A stretch of DNA of 64,000 nt from Phyllobates terribilis (Eukaryota), in the NCBI RefSeq assembly GCF_046119375.1, contig NW_027362761.1, positions 986,234,001 through 986,298,000 on the forward strand. The letters are read 5' to 3'. Below are positions 1-62,937 of this stretch, in pieces (positions within the stretch are counted from its first letter, which is position 1; each line of letters begins with the position of its first letter). The notes under the pieces are model-generated. The model was not told where the DNA came from. It did not search any database and was given only the letters and a program-made list of their open reading frames with translations. The translations under genes and the position numbers were made by a program.

Positions 1-1232
1 GTAATATAAAGACAAACTATAACCCATTGGGTCCTTCCTTTTAAATTGCTATAATTGTATTTTTTGAAAAAATTGTAATATATAATGCTAAGTGATATAA
101 ATAAAGAGGATACTTTCATTATAGTAAACATATAATTAATTGAATTAACTACTGACAACTGATTTTTTTCTATGTTATTGTTGTTATTGATTATATTAAA
201 ATATCTAATTTGTCATAGGTTTTTCTTTATCTGAAGTAGTACTATATTATATTCCATGACAGCATTTAAGCTTAGTTTTCCTTACATTTATTACTATATG
301 TAATATTCATTGTAGAATTCATTATATGTTGGAAAACATTGTTGAAGATATGGGATTAGTTAATGAACATTTCTGTAAAGTAATTTGTATGTAATCAAAG
401 TGACTGTATCACAAGGACATTTCATGTTCTTTTTTCAGTTGTCTGTTTTTTATTACTTTCTAACAAAGAAACTTACAACAGAGTAGCCAATTACAAATGA
501 AAATAAAGACATGCATAACAATATCAGTTAACATAACTTAATTACTAACTTATAGTCTACACATTAGAATATACATAGGAGCATAAAAAAATAGTAACAA
601 CGCTACCTTACAATGATGAGAAGTGAAGGAACAGCTTCTGAAGACCATTATGGAAAGACCTTCAAAAACACAATGAAAAGGTTCTCATCATAATTGTGAC
701 AGTGAACTGTGTAGAAATCAGACCGTTTGAATATAATCATGCATAATACAAGTAGATTAAAAACCATATAGAAAGGAAAGTTAGTTTAGGTGAGAAGGAA
801 AATTCAACTTACTCGATACATCAATAATTCAGAAGACAATGTTAAGCCGCGTTTAGATGTTCAGTGTTTGGTCAGTATTTACATCAGACTTTGTAAGCTA
901 AAATCAGGAGTGGAACAATCAGAGGAAAAGTATAATAGAAGCATGAGGACAACTTCTGCATTTTTCACCCACTCCTGATTTTGGTTACAAATAATAATGT
1001 ACAATACTGCCAAAATACTGAACGTGTGAATGTAGCCTTAGACCCTTGGATCAAATCTATGGGACTCAGGAATTTCCCAAATAGCCCAATATGCAAATCA
1101 CCTCTTCAGAGAAAAAGAGAACTTGAACTCTACAGCTCCACCTATTGGAAGCAGCAATCCTACAAAGTCACAATCAACCCTTTAACAAGACGTGCAATAT
1201 GACTTAGGATGAAAGCCAAATCACAATGTCAA

Positions 1233-1277
1233 TTTGCTCGCACAGTGTTTCGAGCTGTTGGCTCTCATCAGCGGAAA
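1233..1277 (-). ncRNA. Type I hammerhead ribozyme, degenerate copy
   Basis: Minus strand reads TTTCCG-CTGATGA-GAGC-CAACA-GCTC-GAAA-CAC-T-GTG-CG-AGCAAA. Core and stem II are intact; the cleavage dinucleotide and stem I are mutated. Confidence 0.75.
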
Positions 1278-1506
1278 GTATGAGAATTGATTTGGTTAGG
1301 TGAGAGGCTCTGGACTGAGGTCTAAGGGGTAACGTTTCTCCTTATAGAGAGTGACACACTAGCCCTGGCATGTCAAGGTAAGGAGGCTTATTCACCGTGC
1401 AATGTGACTTCTAGGATTGCTGCTTTCAATAGGTGGAGCTGCAGAGTTCAAGTCTTCCAATAGGTGGCACTGTAGAGTTCAAGTCCTCTTTTTCTCTGAA
1501 GAGGTA

Positions 1507-1514
1507 ATTTGCAT
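1507..1514 (+). promoter_or_regulatory. Octamer motif ATTTGCAT in the retrozyme monomer (also 1839-1846 on + and 1091-1098 on -)
   Basis: Exact octamer at the same monomer position in all three partial copies. A regulatory role is inferred. Confidence 0.5.
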
Positions 1515-1660
1515 ATTAAATTTCCCAGAGGAGCATTGCATGGCGAATAAGTCTCCTTACCTTGACCTGCCAGAGCCAGTATGTCACTCTCCAGAAGGAG
1601 AAACGTTACCCCTTAGACCTCAGTCCAGAGCCTCTCACCTAGCCAAATTAATGCTCATAC

Positions 1661-1705
1661 TTTGCACTGATGAGGGCCAACAGCCCGAAGCACCGTGTCT
1701 GCAAA
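1661..1705 (+). ncRNA. Type I hammerhead ribozyme (GAAA changed to GAAG)
   Basis: TTTGCA-CTGATGA-GGGC-CAACA-GCCC-GAAG-CAC-C-GTG-TC-TGCAAA: perfect 6-bp stem I, 4-bp stem II, near-palindromic stem III and a GUC cleavage triplet ending at 1699. Confidence 0.85.
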
Positions 1706-2224
1706 TTGAGATTCTGATTTGGCATTTATCCTAAGTCATATTGTAAGACACGTTAAAGGGTCGATTATGATTTGTAGGATTGCTGCTTCCAATAGGTGGT
1801 GCTGAGGAGTTCAAGTCCTCTTTTTCTCTGAAGAGGCAATTTGCATATTACAGTTCCCGGAGGAGCATTGCACGGCGAATAAGCCTCCTTACCTTGACAT
1901 GCCAGAGCTAGTCACGTCACTCTCCACAAAGAGAAACGTGACCCAAATAGACCAAAAAATCAATTGTTGTATACAACTATCTACTGGTGATACCCCTTAT
2001 GTAAAATGAAATATAGCCCATATGGATATGTATGATAAAATTTATTAAAATAACACATTTCAATTAAGCCTTTATCTGATGATGTTTCCCCAGTGGATAG
2101 ATGTCTGTGGCAACTGATTGTTTTTTTCTTGAAATGATGACTTTGTTACATGATGTCACGGATAAGTGGATAACAGCTGCTTGAAGCTCCAGAAATATAT
2201 TCAACTCAATTATATACAAGGATT

Positions 2225-3965: not shown

Positions 3966-6400
3966 AGTGTGTCTGTGACTGTTCAGACACCAATATATCT
4001 GTTTAAAAGAGTCTGGTGTAGGCCAGAAAAATAGAACTGTGGTTTTGCAGTTCCACGGGTCAAATCTCTGTATTATCCTGTTTTTGGCATTTTTTGCCAT
4101 AAAAGAAAAACTGTAATAGTGTCTGTCTGACTGGTCAGACACCAATATATCTACTTAAAAGAGTCTGGTGTATGCCACATAACTATAACTTTGGTTTTGC
4201 AGTTCCATGGGTCAAATCTCTGTATTATACTATTTTTGGCATTTTTTGTCATAAAAAAAACTGTAATAGTGTCTCCCTGACTGGTCAGACACCAATATAT
4301 CTGTTTAAAAGAGTCTGGTGTAGGCCAGAAAAATAGAGCTGTGGTTTTGCAGTTCCACGGGTCAAATCTCTGTATTATCCTGCTTTTGGCATTTTTTGCA
4401 ATAAAAAAAACTGTAATAGTGTCTCCCTGACTGGTCAGACACCAATATATCTGTTTAAAAAAGTCTGGTGTACGCCACATAACTATAACTGTGGTTTTGC
4501 AGTTCCACGGATCAAATCTCTGAATTATCCTGCTTTTTGTATTTTTGCCATAAAAAAAACAGTAATAGTGTCTTAGTGTCTCCCTGACTGTTCAGACACC
4601 AATATATCTGTTTAAAAGAGTCTGGTGTAGGCCAGAAAAATATAACTGTGGTTTTGCAGTTCCACTGGTCAAATCTCTGCATTATCCTGCTTTTGGCATT
4701 TTTTGCTGTAAAAAGAAACAGTAATAGTGTCTCCCTGACTGGTCAGACACCAATATATCTGTTTAAAAGATTCTGGTGTAGACCAGAAAAATATAACTGT
4801 GGTTTTGCACGGGTCAAATGTCTGTATTATCCTGTTTTTGGCATTGTTTGCCGTAAAAAAAAACTGTAATAGTGTCTCCCTGACTGGTCAGACACCAATA
4901 TATCTGTTTAAAAGAGTCTGGTGTACGCCACATAACTATAACTGTGGTTTTGCAGTTCCTTATGTAATTTATACATGTTATTTCATTGCTATTATGGGCT
5001 TACTTGTTGCCGGCATACTATGTCATTATTTGGTATGTAGATTCAATTCATTTGTTTTTGTATTGAACACTCTGGGGATTGCTCCCTATTTTTCTGAAGT
5101 TGGGTTTTTTATTTTGTTTTAATTTTATCTCAATAAAATTTAATATTTTAATATATCTCTAATACTCTTCAGTTTTGTGTGTTACACAAAATACAAATGT
5201 TGGATATATTGCACTCGAGTTGGATATGATACTTTATAAACCCATGGATACCATTGGGACTTTTTGTGGTTGTCACCAGTATATCTGTTTAAAAGAGTCT
5301 GGTATACGCCACATAACTATAACTGTGGTTTTGCAGTTCCACGGGTCAAACCTCTGTATTATCCTACTTTTGGCATTTTTTGCCGTAAAAAAACTGTAAT
5401 AGTGTCTCCCTGACTGGTCAGACACCAATATATCTGATTAAAAGAGTCTGGTGTATGCCACATAACTATAACTGTGGTTTTGCAGTTCCATGGGTCAAAT
5501 CTCTCTATTATCCTGCTTTTTGAGTTTTTTTGCCGCATAAAAAAACAGTAATAGTGTCTCCCTGACTGTTCAGACACCAATATATCTGTTTAAAAGAGTC
5601 TGGTGTAGGCCAGAAAAATAGAACTGTGGTTTTGCAGTTCCACGGGTCAAATCTCTGTATTATCCTTTTTTTCGCATGTTTTGCCGTAAAAAAAAACTGT
5701 AATAGTGTCTCCCTGACTGGTCAGACACCAATATATCTGTTTAAAAGAGTCTGGTGTGGCCAGAAAAATAGAACTGTGGTTTTGCAGTTCCACGGGTCAA
5801 ATCTCTGTATTATCCTGTTTTTGGCATTCTTTGCCGTAAAAAAGACAGATATAGTGTCTCCCTGACTCGTCAGACACCAATATATCTATTTAAAAGAGTC
5901 TGGTGTAGGCCAGCAAAAAAGAACTGTGGTTTTGCAGTTCCACGGTTCAAATCTCTGTATTATCCAGCTTTTGGTATTTTTTCCGTAAAGAAAAACAGTA
6001 ATAGTGTCTCACTGATTGTTCAGACACAAATATATCTGTTTGAAAGATTCTGGTGTAAGCCACATAACTATAACTGTGGTTTTGCAGTTGCACGGTTCAA
6101 ATCTCTGTATTATCCACTTTTGGGCCTTTTTTACATAAAAAAAAACAGTTTGAGTGTGTCGCTGACTGTTCAGCCCCAAATATATCTATTTAAAAAAGTC
6201 TGGTATACGCCAGTAAATTAGAACTGTGGTTTTGCAGTTCCACTGTTCACAACTCTGCATTATCCAGCTTTTGGCCTGTTTTACGTTAAAAAAAACAGTA
6301 ATAGTGTCTCCCTGTCTATTCAGTCACAAATATATCTGTTTAAAAGATTCTTGTATAGACCAGAGAAATAGAACTGTGGTTTTCCTCTTCCACGGTTCTA
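3966..6400. repeat. About 150-bp tandem array (about 15-16 units) upstream of the hAT transposase
   Basis: Unit TAGTGTCTCCCTGACTGGTCAGACACCAATATATCTGTTTAAAAGAGTCTGG... recurs at about 4116, 4265, 4416, 4724, 4869, 5399, 5549, 5701 and 5851; interrupted by unrelated DNA at about 4959-5272. Confidence 0.95.
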
Positions 6401-6467
6401 ATCTCATTTTAATTATTACCCTTTTTCCATTGATAGTGCGAGTGTAAGTTATTTTACATCATTTTCA

Positions 6468-9400
6468 ATGGGCAAGGCGCGTGGCAAGGGACATGGAACT
6501 GGACGTTCTGGTGATGGTGCGTGTAGAGGACGGGGCCGTGGTCAAGGTGAAAATGTGCCACAACCAACAGCCACATCTTCTCGCTCCCACTTCTTGACCG
6601 AATTACTAGGGAAGCACACTACAACACCAATATTGCAAACTGATCAGTGTGAACAGGTTATTAATTGGATAGCAGATAATACTTCCAGTTACCTGGCGAC
6701 CACCACCTCTGGTCTGTCTTCCACACAGTCAAATTTTAGTAGCCGTGAGTCTCGACCGCATACTCCTCTTCACCCTGATGCTCCTTCCTCCCACCATGCC
6801 GAGGGTCGTCAGACAGCAACTGATCCCACACTTGGACACTCTGAAGAGCTGTTCACTGGTCCATTTCCAGATTTGTGCCCCTCGCCTGCTCCGCTTGAAG
6901 TGATGGAAGAGGAGATCCCATGTAGCGATGCCCAAATATTTGAACAGCCACGGCCTGAGGAAGTCGACGCTGGCAATTTGTCACAAGAGGTGGACGATGA
7001 TGAGAAACAACAGCCAGGAAGTAAGGAGGAGGATCGTGGTGCGCAAGTGGAAGAGGTGGAAGTGGTTGATGATCTAGTAACTGACCCAACGTGGCAGGAG
7101 GGCATACAGAGTGAGGACAGCAGCACACAGGGGGAGGGAGGCAAAGTACCCCAGCAGGCAGGAAGAAGCAGTGAGGTGGCCACACACAGAAGGCGGGAAA
7201 CAGTTCCCCGTAACACCGACACGAGGGACATTGCAAGTACTACCGGTAGGTCTTCCAGAGTCTGGAATTTTTTTAAAGACTCTGCTGATAACCCCAAAAA
7301 GGCCATTTAGTACCACCTGCCATGCCAGCATCAGCAGGGATGACAAAACTACCAGCCTGACCACCACCAGCATGATCAGGCACATGGCAACAAAGCACCC
7401 GACTTTGTGGGGCGAACCCCAGGGTCCACGACCAGTGTCAGCGGGTGTCACCACTGCTTCTTCCACTGTTGTGCGTGTAATATAACCCCCTGTTGTGCGT
7501 GCAAGGCAATCCCCTGTCCACACTGCATCCAAAGATGCCCCCTCCTCTCAGTCTTCACTTGTTATGGCAGTCTCTCAAGAAACAGCATCATTGTCCACGT
7601 CCACGTCCCACCGCAGCGTTCAATTGTCCATATCCCAGAGCTTTGAACGAAAGCGCAAATTCGCAGCCAACGCCCCACAGGCCACAGTCCTAAATTCGCA
7701 CATTTCACGACTGCTTGCGTTGGAATTGCTGCCTTTTAGGCTGGTGGAGACGGAATGCTTCCGCAACCTTATGGTGGTGGCCATCCGTCGGTACTCGGTC
7801 CCCAGCTGACACTATTTTGCCCGGTGTGCCATCTCTGCACTACACAAGCACTTGTCCCAAAACATCTGCCATGCCCTCAACAACGCAGTTACTGGGAGAG
7901 TCCACCTGACAACGGACACGTGGACAAGTGCTTGTGGCCAGGGATGGTATATCTCCCTGACGGCACACTGGGTAAACATAGTGGAAGCCAGGACCCAGTC
8001 GGACCTTGGTACGGGACACATTCTCCCCACACCGAGGATTGCAGGCCCTATGTCAGTCAGAGTTGACCCCACAGTGTACAGCTCCTGCGCATCATCCTCT
8101 TCCTCCACCTCATGTTCAGCCTACATTTCAGATATCACCACATCAGTTACAAGCTTGAAGCACTGCAGTACTGCCTCAGCCAAGCGGCAACAGGCTGTGC
8201 TGAAACTCATAAGCTTAGGTGATAAACCTCACACTGCTTGTGAGTTGTGGACAGCTGTGAAAGAGCAGGCAGATCTGTGGCTGAGACCGCTGAACGTACA
8301 TCCAGGCATGGTCGTGTGTGACAATGGCCGTAACCTGGTGGCGTCTCTGAGGCGAGGCGAGATCACACACGTACCATGCCTGGCTCATGTGCTTAACCTT
8401 GTGGTTCAGCGGTTTCTTAAATCGTACCCCGAGTTGCCACATCGGCTCGTCAAAGTACGCCATTTTCGCAAGTCGGCTACAGCTTCCGCCGCCCTTGCTG
8501 TGTTGCAGTAGCATTTGCAGCTTCTGGCACACCGACTGGTCCCCACACGTTGGAACTCTACCCTCCACACGTTGCAAAGTATTTGTGAGCAGAAAAAAGC
8601 AGTTGTGGAGTACCAGCTGCAACAAGGCCGTCGATATTCAGGTCAGACTCCACACATAAGACCTCAGGAGTGGACCTGGATGTCTGACATATGTACCATC
8701 CTGACAAAGTTTGAGGCGTTCACCAAGATGGTGAGTGGCGATGAAGCCATCATAAGCATCAGCATCCCACTTGTCAGTATTTTGCAACGCTCTCTGCAGA
8801 GAATTAAAGAGGAGGCATTGCAGCTAGAGTATGATGAGATGGATCAAGAACCCGCAATGGGCGATTACACTCAGCCCAGCCTCATCTCATCCCAACGTGC
8901 ATTGGGGGACAATGAAGGAGAGGAGGAGGAGGAGGAAGAAAAGGAGCTGGTATCATGCACTGTAGACGGTAGTACCTGTACAACTGTCATACAGTCGGTT
9001 CAGCGTGGGTGGCCTGAGGACAGGGAGGAGGAGGAGAGCCTGGTCAGTCGTCATCTTGGTGAGGACACGGAAGTCTTGCCCGTTACCAGTCTGGCATGCA
9101 TGGCTGACTTTATGTTACGCTGCCTTAACCGTGACCCTCGCGTTGCCAAAATGTTGGGTGACAGTCATTACTGGTTGGTGACACTTTTAGACCCCCGCTA
9201 CAAGGAGAACTTTCACTCTCTTATTCCTGAGGTGGAGAGGTCTGCAAAAATGGTTCAGTACCAGAAGGCCCTTGCTGCAGAACTGTTAAAAAAATTCCCA
9301 TCTGAACACGCTAACGGCAGAGGTCACAGTTCATTGACCAACCAAGGTGTACAGGCGAGAGAGACGCAACTCCAATCCAGCAGAGGCAGGGGAACACTGT

Positions 9401-9783
9401 CAACATTCTGGGACAGTTTTCTGAGACCCAAACAGCTTACAGGCCCTGAAGCGCGGGGTACTCTCACAAGGAGTGGAAAGTTTCAAAAGATGGTGAGGGA
9501 GTACCTTGAGACAGTACCAGTGTCCTCCGTGATTCCTCTGTGCCTTTTAATTATTAGGTATCCAAGCTGGAATGGACTCGATCTGTATGCCTTGGAGGTC
9601 CTGGCTTGCCCTGCCGCTAGCATGTTATCGGAACGTGTTTTTAGTGCCGCTGGGGAAATTATAACTGATAAGCGCACTCGCCTGTCAACTGACAATGCTG
9701 ACAAGCTGACCCTTATCAAAATGAACAAGGGCTGGATTGGGCCAGACTTCTCATCACCACCAAATGACAGCAGAGTAACATAA
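6468..9783 (+). pseudogene. hAT transposase pseudogene (BED zinc finger, DDE core, C-terminal dimerisation domain), about 1100 codons
   Basis: BED-like VWNFF...C..CH...MIRHMATKH; HLTTDTW, VCDNGRN, CLAHVLNLVV, TRWNST, CPAASMLSERVFSAAG. One +1 frameshift near 7309 and in-frame stops at 7483, 7807 and 8509. Confidence 0.95.
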
Positions 9784-10064
9784 AGACAAATCCACTGTAT
9801 TATATCGGGAGGTGTATTCCCATGCACCGCTTCACACCCACACATGTTTATACGCTATCTCAATTCAGCTTTTTTTTGCTCTTCTCCTTATCCTCAGCCT
9901 CCACCACTATACCACCAGGGTGACCATGGTCCGTGTTGCCAGTATTGCAAGTTCCTCCGTCCTAACTTTTGGAAGCTTTTGCTTGGAAGGCATAGGCAAA
10001 GACTATGGGAGACCCACTCCTCAATAACGGGAATAATGTTTTCAATATGCTGTACTGCATGGCT

Positions 10065-11995
10065 CTTGTAAGGGGCATTAAAACCGTCTTGTTAAACCAC
10101 TCTGACCTCCACGTCTCTTCCAAGGGGCATTTAAAGTATCTTGTTAAGCTTCTGCCACCTCCACGTCTCTTCCAAGGGGCATTAAAACTGTCTTATTAAG
10201 CTAATGCGACATCCACCACTTTTCCAAGGGGCATTAAAGCTGTCTTGTTAAGCTACTGCGACCTCCACCACTTTTCCAAGGGGCATTAAAGACATCTTGT
10301 TAAGCTACTGCGACCTCCACCGCTCTTCCAAGGGGCATTAAAACCATCTTATTAAACCACTCTGACCTCCACTTCTCTTCCAAGGGGCATTAAAACCGTC
10401 TTCTTAAGCTACTGTAACCTCCACAACTCTTCCAAGGGGCATTTTTACTGTCTTGTTAAGCTACTGCAACCTCCTCATCTCTTCCAAGGGGCATTAAAAC
10501 CATCTTGTTAAGCTAATGCGACCTCCACCACTTTTCCAAGGGGCATTAAAACTGTCTTGTTAAGCTACTGCGACCTCCACCACTTTTCCAAGGGGCATTA
10601 AAGCTGTCTTGTTAAGCTACGGTGACCTCCACGTCTCTTCCAAGGGGCAATAAAACCGTCTTGTTAAGCTACTGCGACCTCCACCGCTCTTCCAAGGGGC
10701 ATTAAAACCGTCTTGTTAAGCTACTGCGGCCTCCACCACTTTTCAAAGGGGCATTGATATTGTCTTTTTATTCCACTGCGACCTCCACGTCTCTTCCAAC
10801 GGGCATTAAAACCGTCTTGTTAAGCTACTGCGACCTCCACGTCTCTTACAATGGGCATTAAAACTGTCTTGTTAAGCTACTGTGACCTCCACCATTCTTC
10901 CAAGGGGCATTAAAACCGTCTTGTTAAGCTACTGCGACCTCCACCGCTCTTCCAAGGGGCATTAAAACCGTCTTGCTAAGCTACTGCGGCCTCCACCACT
11001 TTTCAAAGGTGCATTGATATTGTCTTTTTATTCCACTGCGATCTCCACGTCTCTTCCAAGGGGCATTAAAACCGTCTTGTTAAGCTAATGCGACCTCCAC
11101 CACTTTTCCCAGGGGCATTGATATTGTCTTTTTCTTCCACTGCGTCCTCCATGTCTCTTCCATGGGGCATTAAAACCATCTTGTTAAGCTACTGTGACCT
11201 CCACCACTCTTCCAAGGGGCATTTAAACCGTCTTGTTAAGCTACTGTGACCTCCACCACTTTTCCCAGGGGCATTGATATTGCCTTTATATTCCACTGCG
11301 ACCTCCACGTCTCTTCCAAGGGGCATTAAATCCATCTTGTTAAGCTACTATGACCTCCACCAATTTTCCAAGGGGCGTTAAAGCTGTCTTGTTAAGCTAC
11401 GGTGACCTCCACCACTCTTCCAAGGGGCATTAAAACCGTCTTATTAAGCTACAGCGACCTCCACGTCTCTTACAAGGGGCATTAAAGCTGTCTTGTTAAG
11501 CTACTGTGACCTCCACCACTCTTCCAAGGGGCATTAAAACCATCTTGTTAAGCTACTTCGACCTCCACCGCTCTTCCAGGGGGCATTAAAACCGTCTTGT
11601 TAAGCTACTGCGACCTCCACCACTTTTCCAAGGGGCATTGATATTGTCTTTTTATTCCACTGCGACCTCCACGTCTCTTCCAAGGGGCATTAAAACCATC
11701 TTGTTAAGCTAATGCGACCTCCACCACTTTTCCCAGTGGCATTATTATTGCCTTTTTGTTCCACTGCGACCTCCACGTCTCTTCCAAGGGGCATTAAAAC
11801 CGTCTTGTTAAGCTACTGCGACCTCCATCACTTTTCCCAGGGGCATTGATATTGTGTTTTTATTCCACTGCTACCTCCACCACTTTTCCAAGGGGCATTA
11901 AAACCATCTTGTTAAGCTACTGCGACCTCCACCACTTTTTCAAGGGACATTGATATTGTCTTTTTATTCCACTGCGAACTCCACCATTCTTCCAA
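10065..11995. repeat. 52-bp minisatellite (about 37 units, two variant subunits) inside the hAT 3' region
   Basis: Unit AAGCTACTGCGACCTCCACCGCTCTTCCAAGGGGCATTAAAACCGTCTTGTT (AAGCT at 10666 and 10718). A variant carries GATATTGTCTTTTTATTCCA. Confidence 0.95.
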
Positions 11996-12589
11996 CGGGC
12001 ATTTCATTTCTTCCTAATTTTAGTCAGCTTTTGCTTTTCAATGCATAGGCGAACACTAAGGGAGGCCCACTCCCCGATAATGGGTAGAAGGTTTTTAGTA
12101 TGCTGTAATCCACGTCTGTTTCAAGGGGCATTGCAGTTCCTCATAATTTTTGGAAAGCCTTCCATTCACTGCTTTGGCCAACAGTGCACAGGAGACCCAG
12201 TTGCAATAAATGGAAAAAACGGTTTAGTTAAGGTCCTCTGACCCCCATGTCACTTCCAAGGGGCATTGGAGTGCCTCGAAATTTTTGATAGGCATTGCAC
12301 TCACTGCATGCCCTATAACTGTGCAGCTGAACCTCTCCTTTTGGTACAGAAACATATCCTACTAGACATGTGTGGTTGACTTGCCTGATATTGATGTGAA
12401 TGGTCCCTGTTCCTCCTGCTCTTTCTCCTTTGCCACCACCTCATCCATGATTCATCACCTGAAGCTTTGTTTTAATGGGAGTCATAGAACTGGGATAGTA
12501 GCGTAGCAGGAAAACATCCAGCAATCCTCGGAGGGGGTAGGATATGCGCCAAAACGCTGACCACCTGAGGCCTAGCCGCTACTACATAT

Positions 12590-18773: not shown

Positions 18774-20170
18774 CAGTACAGACCAAAAGTTTGGACACAC
18801 CTTCTCATTTAAAGTTTTTTCTGTATTTTCATGACTATGAAAATTGTATATTCACACTGAAGGCATCAAAACTATGAATTAACACATGTGGAATTATATA
18901 CTTAACAAAAAAGTGTGAAACAACTGAAAATATGTCTCATATTTTAGGTTCTTCAAAGTAGCCACCTTTTGCTTTGATGACTGCTTTGCACACTCTTGGC
19001 ATTCTCTTGATGAGCTTCAAGAGGTAGTCACCGGAAATGGTTTTCACATCACAGGTGTGCCCTGTCAGGTTTAATAAGTGGGATTTCTTGCCTTATAAAT
19101 GGGGTTGGGACCATCAGTTGTGTTGTGCAGAAGTCTGGTGGATACACAGCTGATAGTCCTACTGAATAGACTGTTAGAATTTGTATTATGGCAAGAAAAA
19201 TGCAGCTAAGTAAAGAAAAACGAGTGGCCATCATTACTTTAAGAAATGAAGGTCAGTCAGTCCGAAAAATTGGGAAAACTTTGAAAGTGTCCCCAAGTGC
19301 AGTTGCAAAAACCATCAAGCACTAGAAAGAAACTGGCTCACATGAGGACCGCCCCAGGAAAGGAAGACCAAGAGTCACCTTTTCTTCTGAGGATAAGTTT
19401 ATCCGAGTCACCAGCCTCAGAAATTGCAGGTTAACAGCAGCTCAGATTAGAGACCAGGTGAATGCCACACAGAGTTCTAGCAATAGACACATCTCTACAA
19501 CAACTGTCAAGAGGAGACTTTGTGCAGCAGGCCTTCATGGTAAAATAGCTGCTAGGAAACCACTGCTAAGGACAGGCAACAAGGAGAAGAGACTTGTTTG
19601 GGCTAAAGAACACAAGGAATGGACATTAGACCAGTGGAAATCTGTGCTTTGGTCTGATGAGTCCAAATTTGAGATCTTTGGTACCAACCACCGTTTCTTT
19701 GTGCGACGCAGAAAAGGTGAACGGATGGACTCTACATGCCTGGTTCCCACCATGAAGCATGGAGGAGGAGGTGTGATGGTGTGGGGGTGCTTTGCTGGGG
19801 ACAATGTTGGGGATTTATTCAAAATTGAAGGCATACTGAACCAGCATGGCTACCACAGCATCTTGCAGCGGCATGCTATTCCATCCGGTTTGCGTTTAGT
19901 TGGACCATCATTTAGTTTTCAACAGGACAATGACCCCAAGCACACCTCCAGGCTGTGTAAGGGCTATTTGACCAAGAAGGAGAGTGATGCGGTGCTGTGC
20001 CTGATGACCTGGCCTCCACAGTCACCAGACCTGAACCCAATCGAGATGGTTTGGGGTGAGCTGGACCGCAGAGTGAAGGCAAAAGGGTCAACAAGTGCTA
20101 AGCATCTCTGGGAACTCCTTCAAGATTGTTGGAAGACCATTTCCGGTGACTACCTCTTGAAGCTCATCAA
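18774..20170 (+). mobile_element. Tc1-superfamily DD38E (Intruder/IT-type) transposon, 3'-truncated
   Basis: TA followed by CAGTACAGACCAAAAGTTTGGACACACC (left TIR). Transposase breaks off near 20170; no right TIR seen. Confidence 0.9.
19188..20170 (+). pseudogene. DD38E transposase pseudogene
   Basis: ATG at 19188, single in-frame TAG at 19323. Motifs GRPR, WSDESKF, QQDNDPKH and WPPQSPDLNPIE; 38 residues between the second D and E. Confidence 0.92.
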
Positions 20171-21202
20171 AAGGCTCTGAAGCCTATCACTGGTATATAT
20201 TTCTCACTTCTATGTGTGATCTATCCTGAAAACTGCCTTGTACCTCCATGCAATGCTCTGCAGCCTATCACTGGTATATATTTCTCACTCCTCTACGTTG
20301 TTTAATCCATGATACTTTAAAGTCATCACACTTACTTTAACAGTTTATGATCCATGCTGAGTTGCTTGTCTGTTTTTTTTTCTGCAGTTTTATGGTCTCC
20401 TGTTGTCTTAAGCTAGTTGATTGATTGCTAACGAGTTAAATCTGTGTAGATCTAAGCAGATACGTCCCGATATATTGAGACATAGTCAAGGGGCAGCATT
20501 TATGCGGGGGCATTTATGCATACTTTATCGAAGTGCCATAATTTATCAAAGTGCTGCGGCAGTTAGATATGGCAGTTGGACAGGGCAGGAGAAAGGTAAG
20601 ACATGCAAGACAATTAAACAAACTTGCTTCCTGGTCATTTGTTTTGCAAACAGTATTCACCATTTGTATCTGTGCCATTTATATTCTGGCTGCTACAATC
20701 ATCCACATTCACCGTTCTCCCACAAATTCGGCACACTTCATCCATATTAACCCCTCTCTCCTCTCTTCTCCTATGTACAGCTGTCATGCTCTCTTCACAA
20801 TGTTATACCACGCTGATCCATTCATTCCCATCATACAACACAGGAAACGCTCTCACAAATCACTCAAACATCTGCTCACTCTCTGTATCTTCCTTCTATT
20901 AGTTGCAGTTGATATTTCTCCCAACCCAGGACCCTCCAGTAATAATAACACTAACTCTTTCCCTGTTACATTCAGAAACCCTGCTAATCTCATTAATATT
21001 CCCTGCATATCTTCTGTCTCATTCAATTGTGCCCTTTGGAATGCGCGCTCAGCTTGTAATAAACTCTCTTACATCCATGACTTTTTCCTCTCTAATTCCC
21101 TCAACCTTCTGGCTCTCACTGAAAACTGCATCCAGCAGTCGGACACCACCGCCGCTGCAGCTCTCTCCTATGGTGGCCTACATTTCTCTCATACCCCACG
21201 AC
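20171..21202 (+). mobile_element. 5' part of an L2/CR1-group LINE, cut by a hAT end
   Basis: Contains an ORF with an APE endonuclease N-terminus; short direct repeat AGCCTATCACTGGTATATATTTCTCACT at about 20181 and 20262. The 5' boundary is approximate. Confidence 0.75.
20773..21202 (+). pseudogene. LINE ORF fragment: 2A-like motif plus APE endonuclease N-terminus
   Basis: HLLTLCIFLLLVAVDISPNPGP, then CALWNARSACNK...LLALTE...HFSHTPR; truncated at the hAT TIR at 21203. Confidence 0.85.
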
Positions 21203-27204: not shown

Positions 27205-29996
27205 CTCTCCACCTCAGGAATAAGAGAGTGAAAGTTCTCCTTGTAGCGGGGGTCTAAAAGTGTCACCAACCAGTAATGACTGTCACCCAACATTTTGACA
27301 ATGCGAGGGTCACAGTTAAGGCAGCATAACATAAAGTCAGCCATGCATGCCAGACTGGTAACGGGCAAGACTTCTGTGTCCTCACCAAGATAACGACTGA
27401 CCATGCTCTCCTCCTCCTCCCCCCTGTCCTCAGGCCACCCACGCTGAACCGACGGTATGACAGTTGTACAGGTACTACCGTCTACAGCGCATGATACAAG
27501 CTCCAGTTCTTCCTCCTCCTCCTCCTCCTCTCCCTCAATATCCCCCAATGCACGTTGGGATGAGATGAGGCTGGGCTGTGTGTAATCGACCGCTACGGCT
27601 TTTTGATCCATCTCATCATACTCTGGCTGCAATGCCTCCTCTTTAATTCTCTGCAGAGAGCATTGCAAAAGACAGACAAGTGGAATGCTGATGCTTATGA
27701 TGGCGTCATCGCCACTCACTATGTTGGTGGACTCCTCAAAGTTTGTCAAGATGGTACATATGTCAGACATCCAGGTCCACTCCTGAGGTCTTATGTGTGG
27801 AGTCTGACCTGAATATCGACGGCCTTGTTGCAGCTGGTACTCCACAACTGCTCTCTTCTGCTCACAAATCCTTTGCAACATGTGGAGGGTAGAGTTCCAA
27901 CATGTGGAGACATCACACACTAGTCGGTGTGAGAGAAGCTGCAAACGCTGCTGCAACACAGCAAGGGCGGCGGAAGCTGTAGCCGACTTGCGAAAATGAG
28001 CTGACAGGCGGCGTACTTTGACGAGCAGATCTGGCAACTCGGGGTACGATTTAAGAAACCACTGAACCACGAGGTTAAGCACATGAGCCAGGCATGGTAC
28101 GTGTGTGATCCCGCCTAGCCTCAGAGCCGCCACCAGGTTACGGCCATTGTCACACATGACCATGCCTGGATGTACCTTCAGCGGTCTCAGCCACAGATCT
28201 GCCTCCTCTTTCACAGCTGTCCACAACTCACAAGCAGTGTGAGGTTTCTCACCTAAGCTTATGAGTTTCAGCACAGCCTGTTACCGCTTCGCGGAGGCAG
28301 TACTGCAGTGCTTCCAGCTTGTAACTGATGTGGTGATATCTGAGATGGAGGCTGAACATGAGGAGGAGGATGATGCGCAGGAGCTGTACACTGTGGGGGC
28401 AACTCTGACTGACATAGGGCCCGCAATCCTCCGTGTGGGGAGGATGTGTTCCGTCCCAAGGTCCGACTGGGTCCCGGCTTCCACTATGTTTACCCAGTGT
28501 GCCGTCAGGGAGATGTACCGTACCTGGCCACAAGCACTTGTCCACGTGTCGGTTGCCAGGTGGACTCTCCCAGTAACTGCGTTGTTGAGGGCACGGCAGA
28601 TGTATTGGGACACGTGCTTGTGTAGTGCAGGGATGGCACACCGGGCAAAATAGTGTCGGCTGGGGACCGAGTACCGAGGGACGGCCACCGCCATAAGGTT
28701 GCGGAAGGATTCCGTCTCCACTAGCCTAAAAGGCAGCATTTCCAACGCAAGCAGTCGTGAAATGTGCGAAATTAGGACTGTGGCATGTGGGGCGTTAGCT
28801 GCGAATTTCTGCTTTCGTTCAAAGGTCTGCGATATGGACAATTGAACGCTGCGGTGGGACGTGGACGTGGACGTTGATGCTGTTTCTTGAGAAACTTACA
28901 TAACAAGTGAAGGCTGAGAGGAGGGGGCATCTTTGCATGCAGTATGTACAGGGGATTGCCTTGCACACACAACAGGGGGATCTGTTGCACGCACAACAGC
29001 GGAAGAAGCAGTGGTGACACCCGCTGACACTGGTCGTGGACCCTGGGGTTCGCCCCACAAAGTTGGGTGCTTTGCTGCCATGTGCCTGATCATGCTGGTG
29101 GTGGTCAGGCTGGTAGTTTTGTCACCCCTAATGATGCTGGCATGGCAGGTGGTACAAATGGCCTTTTTGGGGTTATCAGCAGAGTCTTTAAAAAAATTCC
29201 AGACTCTGGAAGACCTACAGGTTGTACTGGCAACAGCCCTCGTGTTGGTGTTATGGGGAACTGTTGCCTGCCTTCTGTGTGCGGCCACCACACTGCTTCT
29301 TCCTGCCTGTTTGGGTACTCTGCCTCCCTCACCCTGTGTGCAGCTGGCCTCGCTCTGCATGTCCTTCTGCCACTTTGGGTCAGTTACTAGATCATCCACC
29401 ACCTCCTCCTCTTCCACTTGCGCACCACGATCCTCCACCTCGCTTCGTGGCAATTGTGTCTCGTCATCGTCCACCTCTTGTGACAAATTGCCAGCGTCGA
29501 CTTCCTGTGGCCGTGGCTGTTCAAATATTTGGGCATCGCTACATGGGATCTCCTCTTCCACCACTTCAAGCGGAGCAGGCGAGGGGCACAAATCTGGAAA
29601 TGGACCAGTGAACTGCTCTTCAGAGTGTCCAAGTGTGGGATCAGTTGCTGTCTGACGACACTCGGCATGATGGGAGGAAGGAGCATCAGGGTGAGGAGGA
29701 GAATGCGGTCGAGACTCATGGCTACTAAGATTTGTTTGTGTGGAAGTCAGAGCGGAGGTGGTGGTGCCCAGTTAACTGGAAGTATTATCTGCTATCCAAT
29801 TAATAACCTGTTCACACTGATCAGTTCGCAATACTGGTGTTGTTCTGTGCTTCCCTAGTAATTCGGTCAAGAAGTGGGAGCGAGAAGATGTGGCTGTTGG
29901 TTGTGGCACATTTTCACCTAGGCCACGGCCCTGTCCTCTGCACGCACCATCACCAGAACGTCCAGTTCCACGTCCCTTGCCTCGCGCCTTGCCCAT
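27205..29996 (-). pseudogene. hAT transposase pseudogene, C-terminally truncated
   Basis: MGKARGKGRG start at 29996; BED finger KKAICTTCH...IRHMAAKH; HLATDTW, MCDNGRN, CLAHVLNLVV; several frameshifts; ends at ...ENFHSLIPEVE. Confidence 0.93.
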
Positions 29997-30084: not shown

Positions 30085-32045
30085 ACAGTTCTATTTGTCT
30101 GGCCTACACCCAACTCTTTTGAACAATCTGAACAATCAGGGAGAAACTATTACTGTTTTTCTTTACGGAAAAAATACCAAAAGCTGAATAATAGAGATTT
30201 TTTTACAGTGGAATGGCAAAACCATAGTTATTGGTTACTCGGGTATACCAGACAATTTTAAATAGATATATTTGCAGCTCAACAGTGAGCGACACACTCA
30301 AACTGTTTTTTTTCAGGTAAAAATGGCCCAAAAGTGGATAATACAGAGGTTTGAACCTTGGAATGGCAAAACCACACTTCTATTTCTCTGGCCTTCACCA
30401 GACTATTTTCAACAGATATATTTGTGTCTGAACAATCAGGAGACACTATTACTGTTTTTCTTTACGGCAAATAATGGCAAAAGCAGGTTAATACAGATAT
30501 TTGACCCATGGAACTGCAAAACCACACTTCTATTTCTCGGGTCTACACCAGACTATTTTCAACAGATATATTTGTGTCTGAACAATCAGGGCAGTGGTAT
30601 TGGAGGAAGAATAAAAGTCGGTTGCCATCTATTAAATTGTCCAGTAATCCTTTGGCGCTCCCTGAGACCGCTGCACCATTGTTTACTTGTGAAATATCTC
30701 CATATGGAGCCAAAGCGGCAGGAGCAGCCTGGTCTATTTGGATATGTGAGGACCTGAGGTTATCCAGCCACCGGGTTAAACTACTGAGGACCTGCGGTGA
30801 CGTGGTATCTGGTCCGGCAGGATCGTGTGACCACTTGAGGAGCACGGAGTTGCGAGGCAAACACCGACAGGACGGTACTACAAATAGAGGTGACCCGGAG
30901 CCTCATTAATCACACGCTTAATCTTGGTTGTGTAGACGTACACAACCATCACAGGTGAGTGTACTGGCACTTTTTTAATTATTTAAATAGCCCTGTGAGT
31001 CTACACATGCGCCCTTTCTTTTCTTTTCGCATGAACAATCAGGGAGACACTATTACAGTTTTTTTTTACGGCAAAAAATGCCAAAAGCAGGATAATAGAG
31101 ATTTTTTACCGTGGAGCGTCAAAACCACAGTTATAATTTACTGGTGTATACCAGACTCTTTTAAACAAATATATTGGTGTCTGAACAATCAAAAGACACT
31201 ATTACTGTTTTTCTTTACAGCAAAAAATGGCAAAAGCAGGATAATACAGAGATTTGACCCGTGGAACTGCAAAACCACAGTTCTATTTCTTGGGCCTACA
31301 CCAGACTATTTTCAACAGATATATTTGTGTCTGAACAATCAGGAGACACTATTACTGTTTTTCTTTACAGCAAAAATGCCAAAAGCAGGATAATAGAGAT
31401 TTTTTACCATGGAACGGCAAAACGACAGTTATAATTTACTGGTGTATACCAGACTCTTTTAAACAGATATATTGGTGTCTGAACAATCAGGAGACGCTAT
31501 TACTGTTTTTGGTTACGGAAAAAATACCAAAAGCTGAATAATAGAGATTTTTTACCGTGGAACAGCTAAACCACAGTTATAATTTACTGGTGTATGCCAG
31601 ACTTTTTAAAATATATATATTTGCGGCTGAACAGTGAGCAACACACTCAAACTTTTTTTTTTTAGGTACAAATGGCCCAAAACTGGATAATACAGAGGTT
31701 GGAACTGTGGAATTGCAAAACCACACTTCTGTTTCTCTGGCCTGCACCAGACTATTTTAACCAGATATATTTATTTGCGTCTGAACAATCAGGGAGACAA
31801 TATTACAGTTTTTCTTTTACGGCAAAAAATGCCAAAAGCAGGATAATAGAGATTTTTTACCGTGGAACAGCAAAGCCACAGTTATAATTTACTGGTGTAT
31901 ACCAGACTTTTTTCAATATATATATTTGCGGCTGAAAAGTGAGCGACACACTCAAACAGAGGTTTTAACCATGGAACTGCAAAACCACACTTCTGTTTCT
32001 CTGTCCTATACCAGACTATTTTAGACAGATATATTTGTGTCTGAG
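30085..32045. repeat. About 150-bp tandem array of hAT copy 2 (reverse complement of 3966-6400)
   Basis: Unit CCAGACTCTTTTAAACAGATATATTGGTGTCTGAACAATCAGG...GGAACTGCAAAACCACAG. Confidence 0.9.
30592..31031. other. Unassigned 440-bp insertion with a 13-bp flanking direct repeat
   Basis: TGAACAATCAGGG at 30579-30591 and 31032-31044; the interior is unrelated to the array. Confidence 0.65.
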
Positions 32046-36356: not shown

Positions 36357-39300
36357 TTATGTTATGTTACTATCATTTGGTGGTGTTGAGATGTCTTGTC
36401 AAATCCAGCCCTTGTTCATTTTTACAAGAGTCAACCTGTCAGCACTTTCAGTTTACAGGCGGATGCGCCTGTCAGTTATAATTCCCCCAGCGGCACTAAA
36501 AACCCGCTCTGACAAAACGCTGGCGGCAGGGCAGGCCAGGATCTCCCAGGCATAGAGAGCCAGTTCATTCCACGTATCCAGCTTGGATACCCAATAATTA
36601 TAAGGCAGCATCTTCGTAAAATTATCCCTCCTTGTTATAGTACCCCGCACATCAGGGCCTGTGAGATGGGAGTGTCTGAGAAAACTCTCCCAGACCTTTG
36701 ACAGTGTTCCCCTGCCTCTGCTGGATCGTATTTGTGTCTCTCTCAACTGTACTCCTTGTTTGTCCAACGAACTCTGACCTCTGCCGCCAGCGTTTTCAGA
36801 TGGGAATTTTTTTAATAGTTCCACAACAAGGACCTACTGGTACAGCACCATTTTTGCAGACCTGTCCGCTGCCGGAATGAGAGATAGAAAGTTCTCCTTG
36901 TATCGTGGGTCTAGAAGTGTTACCAACCAGTAATGAATGTTACCCTAAATTTGGAGAACGTGAGGGTCACTGGAAAGGCAGCGTACCATAAACTCAGCCA
37001 TGTGTGCCAGACTGCTAACCGGCAAGACTTCCATATCCTCACCAAGAGGATGACTGACCATGCTCTCCTCCTCATCCTTCTCGTTCTCCTACTCCGCCCA
37101 CTCCTCAGGCCATCCACGCTGAACATTAAGAATGTCAGTTGTGCACGTAGTATTGTCTGTAGCACAGGAAACTAGCTCCTGTTCTTCCTCCTCCTCTTCC
37201 TCATTGTCACCCAATCCACGTTGGGATGAGATGAGGCTGGACTATGTGGAATCACCCTGTATGGTTCCTTGCTCCATCTCCTTGTGTTCCTCCACCTCCT
37301 CATTAATTGTGAGCAATGATCATTTCAGAAGACAGAGAAGCGGGATAGTGAGACTAATTATGGCACCATCGCTGCTCACCATCTTGGTGAAGTCCTCAAA
37401 GTTTTCGAGGATGGCACAGATGTTTCATATTCATGCCCACTCCTGAGCTCTTATGTGTGAAAGCTGACCTGAATAATCATGGACGTTTTGATCCTGGTAC
37501 TCAACAACTGCCCTGTGCTGCTCACAAATCCTTCCCAACATTTGCAACGTTGAGTTCCAATGCGTGGGGACATCTAAAAGTGGAAAATGCTGCTGAAGCA
37601 TGGCAATGGCGGCGGAAGCTGTAGCTGACTTTCTAAAACACACACGCGGCATACTTGGACAAGCAGGTCCAGCAGATCCAGGTAGGTTTTGAGAAACCGC
37701 TGAACCACGAGATTGAGCACATGGGACAGGCATGGCTCGTGTGTGAGCTTGCCTTGCTTCAGAGACGCCACCAGGTTCTGGCCATTGTCACACATGACCA
37801 TGCTTGGCTGTAGGTTCAGCGGTGACAGCCACAGATCTGCATGCTCTTTCAGAGCTTTCCACAACTCTTAAGCATTGTGCCGTTTGTCACCTAAGCATAT
37901 TAGCTTCAACACAGCCTGTTGCCACTTGGCCAAGGCAGTGCTGCAGTGCTTCCAGTTTCTGACTGAGTGATATGGTCATTTCGGAGATGGAGGCTGAAGA
38001 GGAGGCTGAGGAGATGCAGGAGCTGTAGAATGTGGGGGCAACCCTGATTGACCCAGGGCCCATAATCCTCGGCATTGGGAGGACAAGTTCCGCCCCAAGG
38101 TCTGATTGGGTCCCGTCTTCAACTATATTAACCCAGTGTGCCATCAACGAGATGTACCATCTCTGCCCACAAGCGCTTATCCACGTGTCCGTGGTTAGGT
38201 GAACTTTCCCAGTAACTGCGTTGTTGAAGGCACCGCTAATGTTCTGGGACATGTGCTTTTGTAATGCGGGGACGGAAAACCGGAAGAAAAAGTGGTGGCT
38301 GGAGACTGAGTACTGTGGGATGGCTGCCGCCATCAGGTTGCGGAAAGCTTCCATCTCCATGAGCCTAAAAGGCAACATTTTGAGCTCAAGCATTCGCTAA
38401 ATGTGTGAGTTTAGTAATGTGGCCTGTGGGGCATTGGCTGCGTATTTGCCCTTGCATTCCAAGGACTGGAGTAGGGACAACTGAACTCTGCACTGGGACA
38501 AGGACGTGGACATGATTGCTGATCGTGCAAGTTGCGAGTGAGCAATGACAGGAGCAGTGTGGGAGGCATCTCCTCATGCACCATGGACAGGGGATTGGTG
38601 TACACATACAACAGTGGAAGAAGCAGTGGTGTCACCCATAGACACTGTTTCTGGACCCTGGCGTTCGGCCCACATAGTCTGGTGCCTTTCTGTCATGTGC
38701 CTGATCATTCTGGTCGTGGTCAGGCTGCTAGTTTTGCTACCCCTGCTGATGCTGGCCTGGCAGATGGTGCAAATGGCATTTTTGGGGTTATCTGCACAAT
38801 CTATAAAAAAGAACCAGACGCAGGAAGACCTAACAGTAATACTGGCAATTTCCGTCATGTTGGTGTTCCGGGGAACGGTTGGCCACCTTGTGTCTGCGTC
38901 CACCACACTGCTTCTTCCTGCCTGTTGTAGTGTTATGCCTCCCTCTCCATGTGTGCTGCTGTCCAGGCTCTGCATGTCACCTTGCCAGGTTGAGTCAGTA
39001 ACTTCACCTTCCACCACCTATTCTTTCACTTCTGCACCCTAGTCCTGCTCCTGATTTTCTGCCAATTGTGTCTCATCATCCACCTCTTGCAACAGTAATT
39101 GCACTTTCCCACCATTGCGTTCGTATGAACGTGGCTGCTCAAATATTTGGGCATCGCTACATGCGATCTCCTCTTGCCACTATTGAAGCTGGCCATGAAT
39201 AAATGGAAAAGTGAACAGCTCTTCGTAGTGTCCAAGTGTGGAATCAGTTGTCTCCGGGCACTCGGCATGGTGGAAGGAAGGAGGATTAGGGTGAGGAATA

Positions 39301-56821: not shown

Positions 56822-57352
56822 TTATGCTATGCTGCTATCATTCGGTGGTGTTGAGAAGTCTGGCCCAATCCAGCCCTTGTTCAGTTTTCTAATAGTCAGC
56901 CTGTCAGCATTTTCAGTTGACAGGCAGATGCACTTGTCAGTTATAATTCCACCAGCGGCACTAAAAACCCGCTCTGACAAAATGCTAGCGGCAGGGCAGG
57001 CCAGGACCTGCAAGGCATAGAGAGCCAGTTCATGCCATGTGTCCAGCTCGGATACAAAATAATTATAAGGCACAGAGAAATCATGGAGGACGTTGGTACA
57101 GTTGGCAAGGTACTCACTCACCATCTTCTGAAACTTTTCATTCCTTGAGAGTACCCCACACATCAGGGCTTGTGTGATGGGAGGGTCTGAGAAAACTGTC
57201 CCAGAGCTTTGAGTGTTCCTCTGCCTCTGCTCGATTGCATTTGTGTCTCTTTCGCCTGTACTCCATGGTTGTCCAACGAACTGTGACCTCTGCCGCCAGC
57301 GTTTTCAGATGGGAATTTTTTTAATAATTCCGCAACAAGGGCCTTCTGGTAC
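56822..57352 (-). pseudogene. hAT transposase C-terminal fragment
   Basis: YQKALVAELLKKFPS...; LYALQVLACPAASILSERVFSAAGGIITDK. Confidence 0.9.
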
Positions 57353-57902: not shown

Positions 57903-58425
57903 TTTGCGTCTCAGTTAACCCACAAAATGGCCGAAAAAAAGGTATCTGCAGACCACTTTAGTAATCATATAATAACAACAGTGTTACTCAAATATTCTCA
58001 TTGAGGTAATATAACAGTAGTCAAAAATAGAAAAGAAAAAGACTGCTAGATAACAGAGACATCTGATGTTCAAAAATTCATGGTAATGATGTACACTACA
58101 CTCCCAATACTTAGAGCAATGTGCTAAATAAATTTACATCACAACCGTTATAATAAGATGGGTAAGGAGTGTCAATAAGATAACTTATTTTTTGTGTCTC
58201 AGTTAACCCACATAATGGCCAAAAAAGGTATCTGCAGACCACTTTAATAATTATATAATAACAACAGTGTTAGTCAAATGTTCTCATTGAGGTAATGTTA
58301 CAGCAGTCAAAAAAAAAAGAGACTGATGGATAACAGACATGTGATGCTCAATAATTCATGGTAATGATGTGTGCTATACTCCCAGTAGTTAGTGCAATGT
58401 GCTAAATAAATTCACATCACAGCAA
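57903..58425. repeat. About 288-bp tandem duplication in the PLE 3' region
   Basis: TTTG(C/T)GTCTCAGTTAACCCACA at 57903 and 58191 with collinear continuation. Confidence 0.85.
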
Positions 58426-58505
58426 TCACGTAATAACAAACTGTTAGATTGCAGACTTATCTGATGCTGATTGCTTCATTATCACTATATAAAGATGAGG
58501 TCCCA

Positions 58506-58552
58506 GTCCCAACGCATTTCGCCCCCTCCTAGGTCAGGGCTCATCAGGGGAC
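58506..58552 (-). ncRNA. Minimal type I hammerhead ribozyme of the PLE
   Basis: Minus strand reads GTCCC-CTGATGA-GCCC-TGACCTAGGAGG-GGGC-GAAA-TGCG-TT-GGGAC: perfect stem I, stem II and intact core. Confidence 0.88.
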
Positions 58553-59342
58553 AATCACAGAAGTACACCATAATAGGTAGGGCTGGATGGAGAAGTAAAT
58601 ATATCCCATCAATTGAATCACCAAGCCAAAAGAGTCAGTGACCCATCAGGCTTAAATACACCCCCTGCAGTACTTGTACAGGAAACACCTGTCAGCCGTA
58701 TCTAGCGCGGTAGAGCAATCACCACCATGAGGCACTGCTGGAACGCTGAGTGCGTGCCAACGGCGATTTGTTTCTTCCGCCTGTGGCAATGTAAGTCACA
58801 TCCACCACGCGAGCTCAATGGAACGCATATGCGTGTCACCAGTACTTCCACCCGCGACAGACACATGACGCCACTTCGGCCGCACGATCATGGTGGAACG
58901 CAGATGCATCTCACCAGCGCTTAGAAAAAGCAGAAAACATCAATTCTATAAGTTATAACAAGCGCAAGATCAGGAAGTTATAGACATCAAATAAGACACA
59001 AATAAGATCCTAACACTAGGCATAGAGGATTTGTTGATGAAAAAAAAACGGTATAATAATGTACAAATCAGTACCGGTCATTAGAAGAGGGGGAAATATA
59101 GAGGTGTAATAATAAAGAGTTATAAGCCCACTAAACTGTATGTCCTAAGGGTCTAAATACAGAGACTAGCAGGAAATACCAGTAGTCTGATTGTCCAAAC
59201 TTTCATGGACCAGGATACCGACCATGAGACAGTAAATGTATATATAAGTCCAAATGACATAATGCCAGTATTGATTCTTATGAGTGGGTATGCTAATAAA
59301 ACGAGTAGACTTAGACAAAGCTAGAGAAGTTTAGTTGTTCAT

Positions 59343-62755: not shown

Positions 62756-62937
62756 AAGCCGACACGTTCAGTCCGCTCCTGCCCGTGCCACCTCCGCGTC
62801 GCCGGGTTTGTGCCAGAGCCGCGGTGAACCCTGACGGCCAGCCCCCCTCTCCCAATACTGGTGCCTGTCCGCTGGTGGGTCGAGCGAGCCCCCCTGTGGT
62901 GGAGGCAGCTCTAAGCTTTTTAATTTAAATTGTCTCT

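Follow-up and report, generated by a model that had tools for sequence, protein, structure and literature searches.

A dead retrozyme-like hammerhead element in a frog genome, with an inverted insertion scar of the PLE type

Near the beginning of a 64-kb stretch of the Phyllobates terribilis genome (64,000 nucleotides, called the window here) lies an insertion built from a 332-bp unit, with a hammerhead ribozyme motif on each strand, which raises the question of what the element is and which machinery placed it there. A sequence-only reading had filed it as a tandem, retrozyme or satellite-2-like RNA system, and this filing agrees with the unit size, the GC content of 44%, the canonical type I architecture, the lack of ORFs, and the frog host. 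The element is a member of an established class, the animal non-LTR retrozymes, and this copy is dead. The reading preferred here, with a probability of roughly 0.55, is that the locus is a dead copy of a non-coding, satellite-2-like hammerhead unit pasted in by the machinery of a Penelope-like element (PLE); that it is, irrespective of the helper, a retrotransposed and now dead member of a retrozyme-like family we consider likely. The informative part of the locus is its insertion scar, which the first observation had left undescribed.

One insertion in head-to-head arrangement

Positions 1090 to 1941 are one insertion between target-site duplications. The left duplication (1076-1089) and its right copy (1942-1955), both given on the plus strand, are 14 bp long and identical at 13 of 14 positions, a match equaled by 11 of 20,000 random position pairs. 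The last 2 nt of the left copy and the first 3 nt of the right copy double as element sequence (microhomology), and allowing for this, the duplication is 9 to 14 bp long, with an unambiguous core of 9 bp. Inside, the locus is a head-to-head composite of an inverted arm and 1.6 direct units, with no array. When the unit is numbered from u1 at position 1454, the inverted arm, M (1088-1404, minus strand; 317 nt, 88% identical to 1534-1849), spans u81 to u332 and then u1 to u64, with u65-80 missing. It meets the direct part at an inversion junction (1396-1410) that has a 2-nt overlap at 1403-1404 and repeats arm M (1191-1205) at 14 of 15 positions. The direct part, on the plus strand, opens with junction piece A (1403-1453, about u314 to u33), which duplicates 31 bp of unit B, and continues with one full 332-bp unit, B (1454-1785; ORF-less, GC 44%), and 158 nt of another, the partial unit C (1786-1944; u1 to u158, 90% identical to unit B). 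There is no poly(A) at the 3' end of unit C and of the insertion (1944) and no LTR in the unit. ORFs of at least 120 aa are absent between the direct copies and everywhere below position 4151, and no further copy of the unit was found within the 64-kb window. Just left of the insertion, 859-913 and 969-1023 form an imperfect inverted repeat (82%), possibly a small MITE remnant.

The octamer-to-octamer length of 332 bp given by the sequence-only reading is borne out by exact octamers (Oct-1 sites) in unit B (1507-1514, plus) and unit C (1839-1846, plus), which are spaced 332 bp apart, and a third octamer, identified by sequence match, lies on the minus strand in arm M (1091-1098). Its description as a tandem element does not hold, as the direct part amounts to a single full unit and 158 nt of the next, and the two hammerheads are head to head on opposite strands. 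It follows that no transcript of the locus holds two hammerheads in tandem, and two consecutive units with complete hammerheads are absent, there being one per strand, both damaged. A simple tandem array was rejected, with Tandem Repeats Finder giving only the 31-bp duplication here (1423-1485), and two independent insertions are unlikely, since a single duplication brackets both arms and the arms are equidistant.

Units B and C differ at 16 of 158 sites, B and M at 36 of 316, and C and M at 14 of 142, and piece A differs from M at 4 of 49 sites, from B at 6 of 49, and from C at 4 of 31. At the 142 sites common to B, C, and M, private changes number 5, 6, and 6, respectively. The arms are equidistant, 8 to 13% apart, which indicates that they decayed in place, and unit B contains 6 CpG against 16 expected. 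These sequences are consistent with a single insertion event whose templates were nearly identical, after which the copy decayed neutrally. Piece A has variants in common with arm M and not with the direct units; at u15-16, piece A has the same state as arm M, and B and C carry the two CpG-decay products of another, and it is mainly on this one dinucleotide that the shared state rests.

The sequence-only reading had taken a compensatory pair in stem II of the hammerhead as expected under selection on the fold. The change is real, but the selection argument falls. In a comparison of only two copies, 1 of 26 pairs is compensatory and 5 of 26 are disrupted, every one of these in the minus copy; equal covariation is seen in 359 of 500 shuffles, a control that two rows make weak. 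At 11.4% divergence, one or more compensatory pairs among 17 would arise by chance with a probability of about 0.10, and divergence is higher in the hammerhead region than in the remainder (12 of 62 sites versus 24 of 254; Fisher P = 0.04). On the chance rate, the equidistant arms, and the higher divergence of the ribozyme region, covariation was rejected as a sign of selection, and given neutral decay after one insertion, the change of the stem II pair is no evidence of it.

The insertion scar and its helper

PLEs are proposed helpers of animal retrozymes (PMC7229834; bioRxiv 10.64898/2026.07.22.740005), and their insertions typically include an inverted, 5'-truncated copy beside a partial tandem (PMC8557442). 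Head-to-head structures, palindromes at the junction, and 8- to 10-bp duplications have been described for them, with self-priming on an antisense template given as their origin (PMC3846280). The locus resembles these insertions, known from Penelope/Poseidon and Neptune elements, in its head-to-head, inverted, 5'-truncated arm, its partial tandem, and its self-complementary junction, and its duplication of 9 to 14 bp stands beside their 8 to 10 bp. In addition, PLE repeats carry a type I hammerhead, as does the 332-bp unit. The inversion junction falls in the stem of a self-complementary hairpin 3' of the ribozyme (1728-1780, plus), which is predicted in both copies and whose stem supplies the junction homology; 3,282 of 94,249 random junctions repeat arm M as well as the observed 14 of 15 (P of about 0.035), so the junction lends modest support. 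The locus differs from a PLE in being ORF-less, with the RT plus GIY-YIG ORF absent from the insertion, and in lacking the optional 30- to 40-bp PLE tail, its ends differing by 94 nt. A PLE protein purified from anole can nick and extend each of the two target strands, and it starts at a fixed position within the RNA that lacks homology to the target (PMC11167929), whereas short microhomology accompanies both presumed priming sites of the locus. No claim is made for a longer match of the target to the RNA at the 3' end, as 7 to 28 of the 332 unit positions match as well. The hammerhead of the unit is canonical, with a helix I of 6 bp and a helix II of 4 bp as that architecture is defined in PMC4209133, whereas the hammerheads of PLE ends are mostly minimal (PMC4209133). 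From this single locus, we lean toward a PLE as the helper.

With a PLE as the helper, the insertion could have arisen as follows. Transcription of master arrays elsewhere, possibly driven by a Pol II promoter of the snRNA type inside the unit, as its motifs suggest, would yield multimers that self-cleave and monomers that circularize, as described in the literature on the class, for which a model of rolling reverse transcription of circles has been proposed (PMC7229834). The earlier suggestion that the copies here are dead and that active masters lie elsewhere is supported. A staggered cut 9 to 14 bp apart in AT-rich DNA would open the target, as the observed ends and duplication suggest, and PLE reverse transcriptase/GIY-YIG machinery would make the insertion. 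Both 3' ends would prime reverse transcription inside the unit, at u158 and u64, with 3-nt and 2-nt microhomology, respectively, and by the map, both cDNAs would pass the cleavage site and one would exceed the unit length. The insertion ends lie at u64 and u158, 94 nt apart in the unit; the cleavage site lies within each arm and at neither end, and the direct arm is longer than one unit, so that the template was a circle or an uncleaved multimer and cannot have been a cleaved linear monomer. The shorter, first cDNA may then have slipped, folded back via the unit's own hairpin, and copied about 51 nt of itself, and its joining to the other cDNA with a 31-nt overlap would yield the head-to-head structure, both steps being suggested by this one locus. 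The copy would thereafter have decayed neutrally, largely at CpG, with both ribozymes presumably lost, as core requirements imply.

A decayed Neptune-type PLE lies in the same window, 57 kb from the insertion (58505-60767, minus strand, probably reaching about 62400). RT and GIY-YIG ORF pieces with an in-frame stop occupy 59343-60767, and the broken ORF contains an RT domain (Pfam RVT_1, E = 6e-7), a GIY-YIG region, and a CX2CxxC linker, a hallmark of Neptune and Nematis PLEs. A hammerhead (58553-58505, minus) with a fully intact core and a minimal stem III follows this ORF about 800 bp downstream, matched by 0 of 200 shuffles under the descriptor used for the unit and not detected by Rfam. 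Neptune is one of two PLE groups in vertebrates (bioRxiv 10.64898/2026.07.22.740005), and the protein has 15 matches, of which the 10 that are named are all from frogs, hyloids at 41 to 50% identity and Rana and Hyperolius at 32 to 34%, so that this one transposon protein by itself points to a probable hyloid frog host. The terminal region of the PLE shows no relationship to the 332-bp unit (83 of 100 shuffles score as high), and the element was rejected as a parent, with no similarity in either orientation or at either end (83, 59, 99, and 50 of 100 shuffles as high). It therefore shows that the helper class is present, not that the Neptune family was the helper. Just downstream of the PLE hammerhead, 57903-58143 and 58191-58421 are 86%-identical direct copies of about 240 bp, and a degenerate, internally deleted 18S rRNA fragment lies at 62880-63243 (plus; 69.8 bits).

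The main rival to a PLE helper is LINE twin priming, in which the hammerhead element would have been mobilized SINE-fashion by an L1/Tx1, L2, CR1, or RTE element and the inversion would result from twin priming. Head-to-head 5' inversions, microhomology at both new junctions, and duplications of such length are typical of L1 twin priming, and the inversion, the microhomology at both insertion ends, and the duplication length of the locus are alike in this respect. However, the L1 target consensus is T-rich and the target here does not have it, and at 1944 the end falls inside the unit with no poly(A) or simple-repeat tail. LINEs are also named as possible helpers of retrozymes (PMC7229834). 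A LINE ORF is absent among the 30 of 51 window ORFs that were scanned with Pfam, which says little of the genome, and taken together, a LINE helper seems unlikely.

It is quite unlikely that the insertion is a heavily 5'-truncated autonomous PLE, of which only the terminal pseudo-LTR of 332-bp hammerhead repeats was copied. Such an origin would suit a structure typical of PLE insertions (PMC8557442; PMC3846280), the resemblance of 24 of 57 Xenopus retrozyme families to annotated TEs, nearly all of them PLE ends (bioRxiv 10.64898/2026.07.22.740005), and the tandem hammerheads borne by axolotl PLEs (PMC7229834), but here unit adjoins unit with no ORF between them, and the hammerhead is canonical with loop-loop elements, whereas PLE ends, including that of the PLE at 58 kb, mostly have minimal ones (PMC4209133). 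In addition, the unit contains snRNA-promoter-like motifs and has no similarity to the local PLE end.

A DNA-level origin, from a foldback- or MITE-type transposon or from a satellite fragment reinserted and inverted in repair, is very unlikely. Foldback and Mutator elements have long inverted arms and a similar duplication of 9 to 14 bp, which the locus recalls, and hAT and Tc1 remains are plentiful in the window; however, the inverted repeats here are not terminal, with 1 of 10 and 9 of 50 end positions matching, the right arm overhangs by 95 nt, and DNA transposition has no use for a ribozyme. The lack of terminal inverted repeats (9 of 50 end positions match) led to the rejection of a MITE or foldback element. 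Across the window, hAT (dimerization domain, BED finger) and Tc1-type transposase remains occur at 8512-9783, 19326-20180, 28896-29771, 36453-36833, 38574-39017, and 56822-57304, and minisatellite arrays occur at 3976-6405, 30131-31957, 10063-12003, and 48401-50314; they include arrays with a 52-bp and a 31-bp unit, as well as 150-bp units that adjoin hAT remains and occur in both orientations.

Ribozymes and promoter-like motifs of the unit

The extended type I hammerhead of unit B (1642-1723, plus), with 26 of 26 pairs formed, comprises a 9-bp stalk, a distal stem I of 4 bp, an internal loop, a 6-bp stem I (1661-1666/1700-1705), the core (1667-1673), a 4-bp stem II with a 5-nt loop (1674-1686), and a 3-bp stem III with a triloop. 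Its predicted cut lies after C1699 (1699/1700), where the sequence-only reading had placed it. The second hammerhead, in arm M (1228-1284, minus), lies at 1277-1233 in the same register as the plus copy, in agreement with the type I hammerheads previously reported at 1661-1705 and 1233-1277. In the plus copy, G replaces the conserved A15.1 at 1690; the minus copy has lost the cleavage triplet and has 5 of 26 pairs broken, with GAAA intact. The G at A15.1 and the lost triplet are the two lesions noted earlier, and the damage to the minus copy also extends to two broken inner stem I pairs. Each copy retains core bases lost from the other, and the core lesions, set against known core requirements, suggest that both ribozymes are inactive. 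Stem III, previously called palindromic, is a palindrome with an odd center and consists of 3 bp and a triloop, not of 1 bp and a tetraloop; it is self-complementary between molecules (-8.0 kcal/mol).

With at most one core mismatch and a perfect 6-bp stem I required, a type I descriptor has its only match in the 64-kb window at 1667 (the plus copy) and matches 1 of 200 dinucleotide shuffles of the window. The best Rfam family is Hammerhead_HH9 (RF02275), at 21.1 bits (E = 0.025) for the plus copy and 15.2 bits (E = 2) for the minus copy, both below its gathering score of 52, and no hammerhead family reaches Rfam gathering in the whole 64-kb window. The HH9 alignment is full length (1-77), with the core, stem II, and internal-loop positions in register, and HH9 comprises isolated, conserved amniote ribozymes, not repeat units (PMC6155905). 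The extended helix (1640-1730) has a fold z score of -2.45 (3 of 200 shuffles), the 65-nt hammerhead core folds no better than shuffles (z = -0.41), and within the whole monomer the hammerhead fold is a minor state (p = 0.007). Retrozyme monomers are typically highly self-paired; as a circle, the monomer here is 61 to 63% paired, no better than shuffles (z = +0.25, -1.47, and -0.46), for copies that have decayed. A resemblance by chance, which the scores under Rfam gathering, the core fold, and the lack of an intact core in either copy would allow, is extremely improbable, given the single match in 200 shuffled windows, the complementary sets of core bases kept by the two copies, the alignment of the internal loop and loop 2 with HH9, the extended helix, and a unit size like those of newt and axolotl, and the hammerhead is almost certainly genuine. 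With a loose descriptor only, hammerhead-core-like matches also appear at 2076 (plus) and 5172 (minus), at chance level (55 of 200 shuffles).

The promoter-like motifs adjacent to the octamer are, like the target-site duplication at 1076-1089/1942-1955, additional to the first observation. The octamer is exact and has been retained in each of the three copies that extend over it (about 0.015 per unit by chance). Six nucleotides after it lies a Staf/ZNF143 (SPH)-like motif (1521-1540, plus), which matches the Staf/ZNF143 consensus at 16 of 18 positions provided that one additional base is allowed (2 of 500 shuffles, where this and the following counts are single-pattern figures and five patterns were tried); the ungapped match is at chance level (385 of 500). 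A PSE-like motif (1556-1574, plus) matches the human U6 PSE (PMC1790723) at 13 of 19 positions (16 of 500 shuffles, P of about 0.03, one of two motifs tried), and an H1-type PSE was rejected as being at chance level (388 of 500). In unit C, the corresponding motifs follow its octamer at 1853-1872 (Staf-like) and 1888-1906 (PSE-like), both plus. The PSE-like motif would imply that transcription starts around 1616-1621. The insertion terminates 3' at 1941-1944 (equivalent to 1608-1611), 5 to 13 nt before this implied start (chance of about 8%), which could be a matter of chance or could mark the end of a promoter-to-promoter transcript. The snRNA 3' box has matches only with 3 substitutions, none of them near the 3' end of the insertion. 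Together, the octamer, Staf-like, and PSE-like motifs are suggestive of the snRNA promoter of newt satellite 2, which includes an octamer. In the newt, Pol II transcribes satellite 2 from an snRNA-type promoter (PMC2220036). The enhancer of snRNA genes usually consists of an octamer beside a Staf site (PMC3499247; PMC2235858), normally about 150 bp further from the PSE than in the unit.

Place among retrozymes and wider meaning

Animal non-LTR retrozymes have a non-coding unit of 150 to 450 bp, a GC content under 45 to 50%, no LTR, PBS, or PPT, and a target duplication longer than 4 bp, and the element has an ORF-less unit of 332 bp, a GC content of 0.44, likewise no LTR, PBS, or PPT, and a duplication of 9 to 14 bp. 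The canonical type I hammerhead of the class is present in architecture, with core lesions in each copy, and the co-occurrence of these retrozymes with PLEs is matched by the Neptune-type PLE in the window. Animal retrozymes are tandem, as dimers or more, whereas the locus has 1.6 direct units and an inverted arm; the 1.6 direct units imply a tandem or circular template. An active retrozyme is defined by two consecutive intact hammerheads (bioRxiv 10.64898/2026.07.22.740005), which this locus does not have. Retrozymes seem to be without promoters (PMC7761336), whereas the 332-bp unit has promoter-like motifs.

The suggestion that the family is uncharacterized in this lineage overstated its novelty, since retrozymes have been reported from all seven amphibian genomes surveyed, with an average unit of 316 bp, and dispersed monomer copies are common in Xenopus (bioRxiv 10.64898/2026.07.22.740005). 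In the same study, one of nine Xenopus dimers was cleaved in vitro and eight were not, so an intact-looking family need not be active. Newt satellite 2 and axolotl Rtz_331 and Rtz_353 have a unit of about 330 bp and an extended helix I with an internal loop, as here, and the extended form has been reported for salamander ribozymes (PMC6155905). Stem III differs, with 3 bp and a triloop here, 1 bp and a palindromic tetraloop in axolotl Amex1, and 2 bp and a tetraloop in Amex2 (PMC7229834). The snRNA-type Pol II promoter of satellite 2 (PMC2220036) may have a counterpart in the octamer and PSE-like motifs of the unit, and the comparison with satellite 2 is made on architecture and motifs. Relatives of the 332-bp unit were absent from bacterial and archaeal genomes (searched with two patterns), plasmids, and phages. 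The consulted portions of the retrozyme papers (PMC7229834; bioRxiv 10.64898/2026.07.22.740005) make no mention of inverted insertions; in that of the latter, a reference title is the sole place with the word "inverted", and the word "promoter" is absent. The part of the literature covered yielded no description of inverted scars of the PLE type on retrozymes and none of a frog retrozyme with an octamer promoter; the supplements of these two key papers may already hold the 332-bp family or such insertions.

As a dead copy of a known class, the element alone matters little. The helper of retrozymes has so far been argued from co-occurrence and sequence similarity, and insertion scars are an independent test; the scar at the present locus is of the PLE type, and each of its arms runs across the cleavage site, and counting scars in one frog genome would be a cheap and direct test of the helper. 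A wider picture, which we offer tentatively and regard as doubtful, is that of a frog hammerhead-RNA family with its own compact snRNA-type promoter, self-transcribing and common to frogs and salamanders by descent or transfer, whose circular RNA is copied by a PLE enzyme priming both strands and whose insertions are closed by fold-back of the first cDNA. If this is true, such scars would be direct genomic evidence for the PLE-retrozyme partnership, which has so far been inferred, and also evidence for a self-priming origin of PLE inverted repeats. A frog family with a promoter module of the satellite 2 type would bear on high RNA levels and on the age of the family. The scar and the promoter motifs turn the questions of helper enzyme and promoter into simple genome-wide tests.
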